A stretch of DNA of 64,000 nt from Amoebophrya sp. A120 (lineage: Eukaryota > Protista > Dinoflagellata). Made by a program: the position numbers and the translations under genes. Where the stretch lies: positions 440,398 to 504,397 of the forward strand of contig CAJINV010000006.1 in assembly GCA_905178155.1 (NCBI GenBank), given 5' to 3'. The notes below the pieces were generated by a model. The model saw only the letters and a program-made list of their open reading frames with translations. It had not been told where the DNA came from and ran no database searches. Positions 6,001-12,000 of this stretch are shown here, piece by piece (positions within the stretch are counted from its first letter, which is position 1; every line of letters begins with the position of its first letter).

Positions 6001-9000
6001 AAATTTAATTTGTAATGCGGAGCAAATTTGTATTGCAAGAAAACCTACGATAGCGATAATAAACTTTTGCAGTTCATAACGGGACACCCGCTGCAGTTTG
6101 CGGTGGGCTTCCTCCGGGTCGTCGTTATTCTCGTCGAACGCGTATCCCGTGCAAAAGTATAGTACTCGTATAAATGCAAGTCTTGCATCACAAATTTTTT
6201 TCTGAAGGCAAGTCAGCATTACAAATCTTATTTTTCATGCTGAGGAAATTTGTAATGCATTTATACGAGCAAGAGTATAATACTTTTGCAGTTCATAAGG
6301 CGAGCAAGACACGGCGGCGGCGCAGCTTTTCCGACTGGCGCAGGCGGCGCTCGAGAATCCAGGATTCGTACTTGTCTTCGCCCAGCTTCCGCCGCATGGC
6401 GCGACGCAGCTTCCGCTCCTTCTGGATCACCTTCTGCTCCAGGAACCGCATTCTCGGCAAGTTAATCATCTGCTCAAACACGACCTCGTGGAAACCACTG
6501 TCCTCCTTGACATGCCGCTCCCCACCGTGGGTGCGGTGCAACGGCGACAGGTGCTGCAGCTTGATCGCGCCGCGGGCCCGCTTGAAGTCGCGGCTGATGT
6601 GGCCGGCGCCGAGCTGACGGCGGATGTCGGTGGAAACCTCATCGCCCATGTCCTCATCCTTGAGCTTGCGGAAGGTCTTGTCGATCTCCGCGCGCATCAG
6701 CCCGGAGGTCGGGGTGGCCACCGGGTCCATGGTGTCGTGCATGTTGCAGATCATTTCCGCCGTGGTCTTGTCGCCACCCACTTCGGGCATCTTTATGCAT
6801 TGCAAAAGTATCGCTATCGTACTCGTATAAATGCATTACAAATTTGCGTAGCATGAGAAATAAAATTTGTAATGCGGATTTACCTGAAGAAAAAGATTTG
6901 TAATGCATGATTGCGATACGAGTACGATGCTTTTGCAGTTCATAATCTTGAACTGCACACAATGCGCGATCCCGACGCCCATCTCCTTGCACTTCTGCAT
7001 GGTTTCCGGGTCGTATGAGAGTGCACAACTCCCCCTCACCCTCATTTGTATAGCATGGACGGCAAACCAAGCATCAACAAGAGTGCCGGTTTTGCATGAC
7101 AAAGTGCTATTTGGGCTACCAGAACTTGTCATGCAAACAGTGCCAAGAGGCAAAGGGTGGATTGGGTATTGTACATGACAAATGAGAGGAAGGGGGAGTT
7201 GTGCACTGTCATAGGTCGCCGCCGGCGCAAATTGCCAGCATTTCGTCGAAGGGGGTGGAGGGGTCGTGGTGCTTCTTGCATTCCTCATTCGTCATCTTCC
7301 CGTCCGCCATCTCGCCGGAATACTTGTCCGCCATGGTACACGCCTCCATCTTCTCCTCCACGTTTTCGCCTTTCATCTTTTCCAGGTCCTTCTCGTTCGT
7401 GCAGGTGATGGCCACGCCCGGCGGCAGCGCCTCCTTCAGGGCGGAGCACACGCTCGGGCCGGTCTTCGGCTCCGGGGGCGAATCCTGTTCGGAACGGGTG
7501 GCCGGATCGGAGGACATCTTCTGTGGCAGCTTGTCTTCGTACTCGTTGGTGTCAATCTTCCCGTCCTTGTTGGTATCGGCCGACGCGACCAGGTTTTCCG
7601 CGGTGGCGCACTTCGACGCGTCGGCGGAGCAGATAGCCTGGGCAACCATGGTGTTGGGCATGATCTTATCCTTAGCAAAAACGTCCTCACTCCATAGTCG
7701 AGATGGGATCACAAATCTGCTAGACAAATCAGCCAGCTTTGGTTGTTGCGCATGACAAGTTCGGCCCTCGACTTAGCTTGTTCAGCAGCATCACAGATCT
7801 AGTGCATTATGGTGATTCGAGCATCACAAGTTCCGAAACACAGAACTAGCAATTGCTTCTCATGGGTTTTTCCGCATGAGAAATCGATTTTGAGCATGCA
7901 GATTTGCATGACAAGTTATGGGTGACACGTTTTTACACAGGATACGTCTCGCCCGCGTCGGTGTCGGTCATCGACTGCGTGTTGATGGCGTACTGCAACG
8001 CATCGGTCACGTTAAATTCCACGCCCGAAGCCAGAGTATGGCAGTGAACAACTCCCTTTCCCCCTCATTTGCATTGCATGAACGGCAATACAAGCATCAG
8101 CAAGAATGCCAGTTTTGCATGACAAATTTGAATAATTTCCACTGGAGTGTAATGCTATATTTGGGAGGCTACCACCAGAACTTGTAATGCAAACAGTACG
8201 ACCAAGAGGCACAGCTTGTATTTCGGATTTTGCATGACAAACAAGGCCCGAGCACGGGGACAGAGTCCCCGTGCGGCGACCTTCCGGCATTTGTCTGCGC
8301 GGTGGCACTGGGCAGGCAGGTCGCCTGCAGCTAGGTATCTCGGTGCGCCTTGCATTCACTGACCCGCGACGGGCCTGCGGACGCGGCCCCCTTGCTTGCG
8401 CGCACTAGATTCATTAGCCTGCCGCGCGCAAAGATAAAAATAAGAAACGAAGAAACTGGCCCTGGCGCGCGCCGCGCCGGGTCTGGAGCCGGCCCCCAGG
8501 TCATGACGCGGCGACAGAGTCCCCACACTGCCCTAGGGCTTTTCTCTGCCCCTTCCATCCTTGGCCGCGCGGTGTGGTGTCCGGGGAGTGTTCCTTCGCA
8601 GCTAGCCCCTAGGCCATGACGCGGGGACCGAGTCCCCGCTCTGGCCTAGGGCTTCCTTTCGCCCCTTGGCCGCACGGTGTCCGGGAAGCGCTCACAGCTG
8701 GCCCCTAGGCCATGACGCGGGGACCCACCGAGTCCCCGCGCTTGCCTAGGGCTTTCGCCCCTAACTTGGCCGCGCGGTCTCGCCGGGGAGCGCTTGCAGC
8801 TAACTGGCCCCTAGGCCATGGCGCGGGGACCGAGTCCCCGCGCTGGCCTAGGGCTTTCGCCCCTTGGCCGCACGGTGTCCGGAAAGCGCTTACAGCTGGC
8901 CCCTAGGCAATGACACGGGGGCAGAGCCCCCGCGCGCGCTGGCCTAGGCAGGGCTTTCGCCCTTTGGCCACACGGGGCCACGGGAAGTGCTGCGAGCTAG

Positions 9001-12000
9001 CCCCCAGGCCATTGCGCGGGGACCGAGTCCCCGCGCTGCCCTAGGGGTTTCGCCCCGCCCGCCCTTGGCCGCGCGGTGTCCGGGAAGCGCGCACAGCTGG
9101 CCCCTAGGCCATGACGCGGGGACCGAGTCCCCGCGCTGGCCTAGGGCTTTCGCCCCTTGGCCGCACGGATTCACGGGGAGTGCTGCCTGAAAGCTACCTA
9201 GCCCCTAGGCCATGGCGCAGGGAACGGGCTCCCACGCTGGCCTAGGGCCTTCGTCCCTTGGCCGCACGGTCGGTGTCCGGGAAGCGCTCCGGCACAGCTG
9301 GCCCCTAGGCCATGACGCGGGGACCGAGTCCCCGCGCTGGCCTAGGGCTTTCGCCCCTTGCTTGGCCGCACGGTGTCCGGGAAGCGCTCACAGCTCGCTG
9401 GCCCCTAGGCCATGGCGCGGGGACCGAGTCCCCGCGCTGGCCTAGGGCTTTCGCCCCTTGGCCGCACGGTGTCCGGGAAGCGCTCACAGCTGGCCCCTAG
9501 GCCATGACGCGGGGACCGAGTCCCCGCGCTGGCCTAGGGCTTTCGCCCCTTGGCCGCACGGTCTCGCGTGACAGACTGGACTTCGGGCCCAAACCTCACA
9601 TGACGAAGTCCGAAAGTTTGGCCGGGGTGTGTCCGAAAGTCTGCCCGGGGTGTGTCCGAAAGTCTGCCCGGGGTGTGTCCGAAAGTCTGCCCGGGGTGTG
9701 TCCGGGGTGTGTCTGGGGTATGTTCGGACTTTTTGCCTGGGGTATGTTCGGGGGTCTGTCTGGGGTATGTCTGGGGTGTGTCTGGGGTGTGTCTGGGGTA
9801 TGTTTATACCCCACCTGTTGGTTTTTCGGCAAAAAATTGTAGTCCGCTCGTGATTGAGGAGCATTTGCATACCCCTGACACACCCCCGAACACACCCCCG
9901 AACATACCCCTCGCCTGCATTTTTGACCAGCTGCTGCAGTTTAGATAGTAATGAGGGGGAGGGGGAGCTATGTGCACTCTCATAGGCTACCTGCCCGGTG
10001 CCGGTCGAGAGGCGGCGAACCATCATGCCGGACTTGTCGTCGACGTAGGACAGCATCCGGCGACGGTAGTTACCGGAAAGCAGATCCGCCTCCAGCATGC
10101 GGCGACTGGTCTTCGTGGCCGTCCGGTTTGCGGCTTCCACCATCGCGACGGTGGTGGGCGACCGCATGTCGGTGTTGTTCACCATCTGCTCGAACGCGGG
10201 GAGCTATGAACTGCAAAAGTGTCGTATTCCTATTCGGATAAATGCATTACAAATTTCCTCAGTATGAGGAATAAAATTTTTGATGCTGATTTACCTCAAG
10301 GAAAAGATTTGTAATGCATGACTGCAATACGAGTACGATGCTTTTGCAATGCATAGGAGCGCCGCCTTGGTGCCCGCCTTCATCTCGTCCATGGTCACGA
10401 AGGTATCGTTATCGTAAGGAAAAATTCCACCTCCCATAATCAGAGAGAAAATTTGTGATGCTGATTTGTCGCCACAGCTCAGCTTTGTCTTGCATACAGC
10501 TACAAGGCAAACGGCACCCATGTGGCGCATTGTGCAGCCAGTCTGTCATGCGTTTTCGCCTATGTCAAAGTTGTTTCTCATGCGCAGCTGCTAGCCGGAT
10601 TACACGTAGTACCTAAATGAGCTTAGAATAAGTATGCCGACATCAAGCTCTCGCTGCAATAGAAAGTTCATTTGTGTACACAAATCCAGCAAGACAAATT
10701 GTCTTTTGAGTATGGGGTCGTGGGGGCTTTTTTCACTTTGATAATCGTTGTCCTTGTTGAATTTCTCCCACGCGTCCATGATGGTCATGCCCGGCGGCCC
10801 GTCCATCGGCAGTGCCTCAATGTAGGAAAAGAACTGGGTGATGTTACAGGCACCGGAGGGGCAGTACTGGTACAGATCGGGGACCATCGGGTTGGCAACG
10901 CCGTTCGCGGTATCGCCCTCGGTGGACATGGTGATCACCGCCTGCACCAAGTCGCACGCAACAACACCTTTTTGTTTTTTTGTTTGTAATGCATAAAGCG
11001 TGTTAATATTTACAGAACGGTGCGATTCTTGGGAAGATGTTGCCACAGAAGCAGAGCGGATAATCATATTCTTCCTGTAGTTGCCAGCATCCCCATGATC
11101 AAGAAGAATACAGTTTTCACAAACGCAAGGAAATAAATCAGAAGTAGATGTTGAAAGTAGCACAATGTAATCATAACATCATATTACCAGTAGCATTGGC
11201 ATTCGTGTAGACTGGCGGCACCGTGGTGGTGGAAGCTTCCCACGGCTCCATATCCTGCGTAAAAACGTCCCTAGCCCAGAGTTGTAATGCAAATGGGCAT
11301 GCTGAGTATGTTTCTCATGCCGAGACCCATGAGAAGCTTTTTCTAGTGGTGTTTTGAAATTTGTGATGCTCAGAGCAGCATTATAGACTGGGCCCGTCAT
11401 GCTGTTGCACTTAGCTAAACTACATCGGACTACCCTACGAACCCAAATCTGTCATGCGCAACAGCCAAAGCTTGTTGATTTGTGTAGCAGATTTCCCACC
11501 TTGACTATCGGTCGTTGGGGACGCTTTTACTCAGGGTACTCCATGCAGCGGCCACCATCGTGCATCATGGGATCGTATCCAATGCAAATATGTCTGGGTC
11601 TGGAAGATTGCTACATTTGTCGTGTATGTCTGACATGGCTCAAGAATCTGTGATGCATGGGCACGAAGCTGTCCTCTTTCCTGTCATGCAAAAACGTAGT
11701 TTGCCATGCGGAACACGCAACACATAGGAGCCCAAAAATTTGTCATGCTTGGCTCCGTATTGCAGTGGAACTCTCATTCACTTTTAGCATTACAAGTTTC
11801 CAGACCCAGACATTTTTCCATTTGATAGATCGTACCCAGCGCAGAAGTACTTGCCGGCGGTGCGGATCAAAGAAAAAAAGTTCGTCACGATCACTCATGC
11901 GCATTCTTGCAATACAAAATTGTTTGTCATGCGTAAAAATGCATCACAGCCAGACTTCATTACGGATTTCCCTAGTGTTTCTGCAATACAAGGAAAGTTT

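Follow-up and report, generated by a model that had tools for sequence, protein, structure and literature searches.

Helitrons have a target preference of two bases, and the sole sequence-targeted case that we found in print is the proposal that the Helitrons of Paramecium, which form a third clade, insert into telomeric repeats (PMC13085455). The ends of the HLE1 and HLE2 groups have been defined (PMC11417382, PMC5148889), and the canonical Helitron hairpin lies 10–12 nt from the end (PMC5148889). In Helraiser, the 3′ hairpin is the terminator, CTTG beside T is a recorded alternative end, and preference for particular flanking bases peaks at the 3′ end (PMC4778049). Non-autonomous Helitrons filled with minisatellites are likewise on record (PMC12001565). 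Here, we describe an element from the dinoflagellate Amoebophrya sp. A120, found in a window of 64,000 nucleotides (contig CAJINV010000006.1, positions 440,398 to 504,397; all coordinates below are those of the window unless they belong to a named contig). Its hosts fit the introners of Amoebophrya, which have inverted ends, short direct repeats and non-canonical splice sites (PMC7789003, PMC12130899). The element is mobile, multicopy and non-coding, and its copies occupy the same base of a motif shared by many introner families. Judging from its sequence, we think it probable that it is a non-autonomous, Helitron-like element moved by an HUH transposase that reads part or all of this motif.

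In our literature search, we found no description of an Amoebophrya Helitron or of a DNA element that targets introners; two supplement files of PMC12130899 lay outside this search. The word ‘nested’ is absent from the available text of PMC12130899 and ‘Helitron’ from that of PMC7789003 and its supplement, while 18 dataset matches to ‘Helitron’ include no Amoebophrya rows.

Insertion site and targeting

The window is dense in short inverted-repeat introners (89 repeated segments), and introner DNA makes up 40% of it. Two regions on the minus strand, copy 1 (8242–9951, 1,710 bp) and copy 2 (31992–33945, 1,954 bp), are GC-rich and match each other and nothing else within the 64 kb. On the plus strand, copy 1 starts with CAAGG, which abuts GCATGACAAA (8232–8241), and ends in TAGTAA, followed by the T at 9952 that completes the target motif; copy 2 starts with the same CAAGG, abutting GCATTACAAA (31982–31991), and its TAGTAA end is followed by the completing T at 33946. 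After excision in silico, the alignment of either host to uninterrupted sibling introners (three for copy 1 and seven for copy 2) has no gap at the junction, and the insertion site shows no net base change in either case. The host of copy 1 has TAT...ATA ends (8037–9984), and that of copy 2 is flanked on both sides by a 5-bp duplication, TGGGA (31940–34043); the two belong to different families and have no BLAST match to each other. The initial annotation had placed both copies exactly at GCATNACAAA^T, in the same orientation and in different introner families, and the coordinates, junction alignments and BLAST comparison agree with this. It had also stated that there is no target site duplication, which holds in so far as no base is gained or lost; however, since AA ends both the element and its left flank on the plus strand, the boundary is ambiguous by two bases, and the junction can also be read as an insertion at T^T or as a 2-bp duplication.

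The motif GCATNACAAA occurs at 160 sites in the window (both strands), with 148 in introner-masked DNA and 0.65 expected. Because it is so common, the two window copies by themselves are weak evidence for targeting, and three extra copies bear the test. The pattern with which these were sought in public metagenome contigs consisted of the hairpin end only, with no flanking sequence. It gave three matches (L001, L002 and L003), every one of them behind the motif at the identical base, the upstream variant being GCATTACAAA in L001 and L002 and GCATCACAAA in L003. Position and orientation relative to the motif are fixed in all five copies read, across five introner families whose mutual similarity consists of one 15-nt motif match and nothing more, and uninterrupted siblings of the hosts of L001–L003 are present in the window. 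Orientation tracks the motif and not transcription, since relative to the host reading frame the element is antisense in L002 (judged by eye) and sense in copy 1. The copy in L001 is 379 bp long and has both ends; its left part resembles copy 1, and its final 81 bases are identical to copy 2 at 80 positions. In all three copies with both flanks, insertion at A^T goes without net base change, with the AA overlap permitting T^T or a 2-bp duplication as above. A viral scan with a short end pattern gave two matches, which were set aside as unrelated coding sequence without a hairpin; two further scans of viral sequence and two of prokaryote genomes had no match. As a side observation on the motif, 159 of the 160 window sites have G, T or C at position 5 and one has A, and T comes after the motif at 115 sites.

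As null model we used the introner DNA of the window, against which copies from other contigs, possibly of another strain, are compared. There, the motif accounts for 112 of 4,104 A^T sites (2.7%) and for 148 of 1,801 AAA^ sites, and the chance of finding three copies at it is 2e-5 and 5.5e-4, respectively. Its share is 10% among AA^T sites and 18.5% among those with AAA^T; for five out of five copies, the chance is 1.5e-8 (A^T), 1e-5 (AA^T) and 2e-4 (AAA^T).

Ten sequencing runs overlap the region, and contigs from four runs of one sample were aligned to 8221–8310 at 80% likeness; these runs may themselves be the source of the window. In X1, a DNA-like run, 17 contigs aligned to the element end, and seven of them have loose ends, two downstream and five upstream. 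Four of the upstream ones begin only past the motif (8228, 8231), and the fifth, at 8244, contains GCATCACAAA and then CAAG in its loose letters. Every contig of this run with an upstream flank (5/5) crosses or contains the motif, and at the element boundary itself no contig has a loose end. Run X2 has 20 aligned contigs, with at least five upstream loose ends, at 8225–8231, among those listed. A 59-nt core contig begins at AAA with a depth of 1,048, compared with 20–25 for contigs with long flanks; this suggests that copies of the element number in tens, a figure that reflects contig depth and is not a copy number.

Taken from these sequences, targeting of the motif is very likely. The initial annotation had proposed it as opposed to random insertion at AT or TT sites, and both the three flank-free matches and the run contigs point the same way. 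Some observations nevertheless weigh against so firm a statement. Of 279 introner sites with ACAAA^, 148 carry the whole motif, which gives p = 0.15 for three copies and 0.04 for five, and the enzyme may read about five bases (ACAAA) instead of ten. Copies with both ends read are few (three). As for the runs, the summed depth is higher at motif bases 8233–8235 than in the element core (2,065 vs 1,695 in X1; 3,819 vs 3,101 in X2), but overlapping contigs inflate these sums. Furthermore, contigs with random flanks would match over only about 30 letters, and the alignment may therefore favour contigs that match the motif.

Anatomy and coding content

Read on the minus strand, the element consists of a 19-nt start, 11- and 23-bp repeats, a variable interior, an array of 87–100-bp units, 250–400 unique bases and a terminal hairpin. 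The putative 5′ terminus of copy 1, TTACTAT... (9933–9951, minus strand), is identical to that of copy 2 at 17 of 19 positions, and this 19-nt sequence has two matches in the window against 0.04 expected. The subterminal 23-bp and 11-bp repeats of the GGGGTGTGTCT type lie at 9608–9910, where a short inverted repeat set (9868–9910) stops 41 nt from the element end, as it does in both window copies. At 8496–9562 (minus strand), the terminal hairpin is repeated in an array of 11 units, each about 100 bp long. The predicted 3′ terminus, a hairpin followed by CTTG (8242–8284, minus strand; from folding and pair counts), has a 10-bp inner stem (8252–8274) 10 nt from the end and an outer stem that includes part of the terminal CTTG. 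Copy 2 has ends and an array of the same type and a different unique interior; four clear units of 87–100 bp, each a hairpin with CTAG, can be made out in its array (32400–32990, minus strand), the rest being degenerate. Its subterminal arm also contains a 139-bp tandem duplication (33654–33921).

The internal units are homologues of the terminal hairpin. In them, a 10-bp stem precedes a tetranucleotide by 10 nt, which is CTAG in 17 of the 20 units listed, whereas it is CTTG in all five true ends; the array units of copy 1 end in CTAG (9/11) or CTGG. Behind each internal unit stands GGGC, and in no case T; behind each true end stands TTTGTNATGC. In all five copies, every base of the terminal stem is paired, and the stem lies 10 nt from the end. 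At its ninth pair, copy 1 has A-T and copy 2 has G-C, in agreement with the compensatory change that the initial annotation had noted in a minus-strand 10-bp hairpin with 6 nt and CTTG behind it; the third pair is A-T in the five true ends and G-C in 17 internal units. Overall, 95% of 150 stem cells are paired, in an alignment in which the copy 2-type loop is misregistered and for which a separate one was substituted in judging compensation. The far end is precise and identical in all three copies with both ends, which span two subfamilies.

A Pfam search of 19 frames from the elements, the L001–L003 loci and the window, including the long frame of copy 1, gave no transposase domain and no remnant of TnpA or TnpB/Fanzor; the long frame of copy 1 had no Pfam match of any kind. 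The autonomous partner suggested by the initial annotation (RepHel, Rep or Y1) did not turn up in the element, locus and window fragments searched. For a 68-residue frame in L003, none of 36 candidates matched. Rfam returned 15 matches on copy 1 at E values up to 5, all far under the cut-off, with hepatitis delta virus (HDV)-like matches reaching at most 20.6 bits vs 50. A search for an internal guide matching the target gave seven scattered matches with two mismatches, none of them conserved.

Further observations concern single copies. The one in L002 (2002–2774) combines a copy 2-type hairpin with a unique, partly AT-rich interior and has no array in its first 770 bases; as its sequence stands, no other copy is as good a candidate for a long or autonomous family member, and its contig ends within the element. 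A 33-residue frame tail in its unique interior of more than 700 bases matched only a repetitive coiled-coil protein and was dismissed as noise. In L003 (3881–4209), the array breaks off suddenly, and behind it lies sequence with a minus-strand frame rich in G and C at third codon positions, which suggests captured or nested DNA. Finally, ATTTGTC just past the hairpin of copy 1 (8290–8296), L001 and L003 (3049–3055) complements the target GACAAAT and is missing in copy 2 and L002; this complementarity is probably due to chance.

Relationship to described transposons and mode of movement

The element resembles HLE1 and Helraiser in its asymmetric ends, the hairpin that lies some 10 nt short of the 3′ end (within the 10–12 nt of the HLE1 rule in all five copies), a site that can be read as A^T without a clear duplication and the internal CTAG (PMC4778049, PMC11417382). 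It differs from them in its TT and CTTG ends and in using a fixed base within a 10-nt motif, whereas Helraiser prefers just AT in AT-rich DNA. With HLE2 (Fusarium FoHeli1/2, with a TNAT preference), it shares T-rich ambiguous junctions, a short extended target and non-autonomous forms filled with tandem repeats (PMC5148889, PMC11417382), but the copies have no asymmetric terminal inverted repeats in common, which are 12–17 nt long in HLE2 (Helitron2/Helentron). The nearest known case is the CCAA-end clade of Paramecium, which, like the present element, has an alveolate host, a non-CTRR end after a compensating stem-loop, a satellite-filled interior and a fixed orientation to a repeated motif behind the 3′ end; the Paramecium Helitrons, however, target the C4A2 telomere repeat at chromosome ends, end in CCAA, and have known transposases (PMC13085455), whereas the target here lies in intron-forming transposons within genes. 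Replitrons are defined by short direct repeats at or near their termini (PMC10288648), and the copies described here share none except AA. Spy (PHIS) elements have terminal inverted repeats and an AAA^TTT target (PMC4122938); here, such repeats are missing, and AAA^TTT is found at one of the three sites with both flanks.

By analogy with these systems, it is likely that HUH chemistry moves the element. The minus strand would be the strand moved. One nick would open the element start (TTACTAT), another the target (TTTGTNATGC), and a third would follow the hairpin-CTTG end; since each of these presumed nicks lies 5′ of TT, the shared AA would be accounted for without a duplication. The informative half of the target would be located on the 3′ side of the element. 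The motif would be required at the donor end, too, and internal hairpin-CTAG units would be read through since GGGC, not T, comes next. Targeting could come about by direct reading of the motif by the enzyme or by tethering to a motif-bound protein, and the data fit both. As introners, which leave by their own ends, hold about nine in ten of the motif sites, insertions would usually spare the mRNA. It is a more tentative, and in our view doubtful, extension of this scheme that the element represents a rolling-circle family with an HUH enzyme reading ten bases, specialized on the introner motif, in which the target doubles as a licence for termination past a dozen decoys: a scarless integrase parasitizing self-removing parasites. 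The term ‘Helitron-like’, used in the initial annotation, describes the likely mode of action, as suggested by the anatomy, but not membership in a defined group.

A number of findings count against the Helitron-like reading. The 5′ TC of HLE1 is replaced by TT (TA or AC if the boundary is shifted) in all three copies with a 5′ end, and the 3′ CTRR by CTTG in all five true ends, CTAG being confined to internal units. No inverted terminal repeat is conserved among the copies; the best ones are 8, 13 and 10 nt long with a mismatch and differently placed in each copy. No transposase was found in the element, locus and window fragments searched. As the hairpin of Helraiser is a terminator, passing up to 11 internal hairpin-CTAG units demands an extra rule. 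Moreover, the AA overlap suits a 2-bp duplication or the core of a recombinase equally well.

The hairpin could, for instance, be the 3′ end of an RNA that is read by a reverse transcriptase, the element then being a passenger, similar to a short interspersed nuclear element, of a site-specific retrotransposon without long terminal repeats, whose endonuclease would leave little or no stagger on cutting the motif. We consider this unlikely, even though the target motif is one-sided and adjoins the 3′ stem-loop, and even though G-T wobbles outnumber A-C on the minus strand, a count of few independent events that single-stranded DNA fits as well. Some site-specific clades of such retrotransposons make no target duplication, and at most 2 bp are duplicated here; yet there is neither a poly(A) nor a simple tail, none of the three copies is truncated (a sample of only three), the far end is exact and shared by both subfamilies, and Rfam gave no significant ribozyme or RNA family for copy 1. 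An AA crossover core, by contrast, would be expected of a site-specific recombinase (IS607EU-type serine or Crypton-type tyrosine) acting on a double-stranded circle, with the short repeats as its binding sites. The 2-bp AA overlap at both junctions and the 11-bp repeat arrays close to one end would suit this scenario, which we nonetheless find quite unlikely: to our knowledge, a conserved, covarying hairpin with CTAG or CTTG 10 nt from one end is not a feature of either group, and the terminal direct repeats shared by the copies do not exceed 2 bp. The IS607EU and Crypton groups do lack terminal inverted repeats and target site duplications, but IS607 uses GG and G-rich targets (PMC13565253), and where IS607EU has GG termini and a GG core, the core here would be AA.

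If the plus strand were moved instead, the layout of insertion 3′ of an AT-rich target, beside a hairpin and without target duplication or terminal inverted repeats, would be that of an IS200/IS605-like HUH element working on single strands (PMC13565253), with a target of four to five bases on its 5′ side, a left-end hairpin and a target perhaps chosen by base pairing. The target side fits, a 5-base target is compatible with the motif statistics, and ATTTGTC in copy 1, L001 and L003 could supply part of the pairing. On the other hand, this stretch is missing in copy 2 and L002, the other end has no conserved hairpin and folds weakly and differently in the two window copies (-3.8 and -6.2 kcal/mol), and the Pfam-searched frames hold no TnpA or TnpB/Fanzor remnant, all of which makes such an element very unlikely. 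It is extremely unlikely, finally, that there is no targeting at all and that insertion occurs at any A^T or AA^T, with selection keeping only the copies in introners. The density of the motif (160 in 64 kb) and the introner content of the window would favour this, but the chances given above for five out of five copies were calculated within introner DNA, and the run contigs lack loose flanks at the element boundary.

If the Helitron-like reading is true, the element would be a second case of a sequence-targeted Helitron, implying that HUH transposases can acquire long target specificity, and its scarless, orientation-fixed integrase would be worth characterizing. It would also mark the introner motif as a recognized DNA site. 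Aiming at repeats as safe sites has precedents in other classes: Dada reportedly aims at multicopy sequence, which limits harm, and Tx1L likewise aims at Tx1D; unlike the present element, both make target duplications, Dada being a DDE transposon and Tx1L a long interspersed nuclear element.

The enlarged intron and other features of the window

In the RNA-like run X4, one 13-kb contig skips 8033–9985 (1,953 bases), comprising the host introner and the whole of copy 1, together with three neighbouring introners, and the exons joined across the gap stay in frame. The cut lies one base before and four after the TAT...ATA ends; this host introner (8033–8037, 9984–9989) has no matching 5-bp duplication, yet it is cut in the identical 1+4 register. 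The initial annotation had regarded introners as safe havens for the element, and a contig without the entire enlarged intron is in line with this, but it does not separate a filled from an empty allele. What tells against it as evidence is that the junction of copy 1 has no contig depth at 8221–8223 in four runs, which proves nothing either way; because no contig covers this junction, the skipped intron may stem from either allele. X4 has no cover over 8336–9622, and contigs are unable to prove that a transcript is absent; a raw-read RNA run (X11) yielded one aligned read and was uninformative. Introns of this type likely tolerate an eight-fold increase in size, and the element offers a direct test of whether they are removed by way of the pairing of their ends.

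The host gene of copy 1 (7212–7772) has a weak EF-hand match, which lies under the cut-off. When one host protein was compared for lineage, none of 658 candidates matched. At the end of the window, a block with 70% GC (62950–64000) runs off the edge; it is unrelated to the element by BLAST, and the single frame of it that was searched gave no Pfam match. At 24384–28452, a stretch of 43–61 nt occurs four times (24384, 25547, 27195 and 28410) between three GC-rich blocks of 1.1–1.6 kb. This arrangement looks like stacked insertions, each with long direct copies of a single exon-like site at its flanks.

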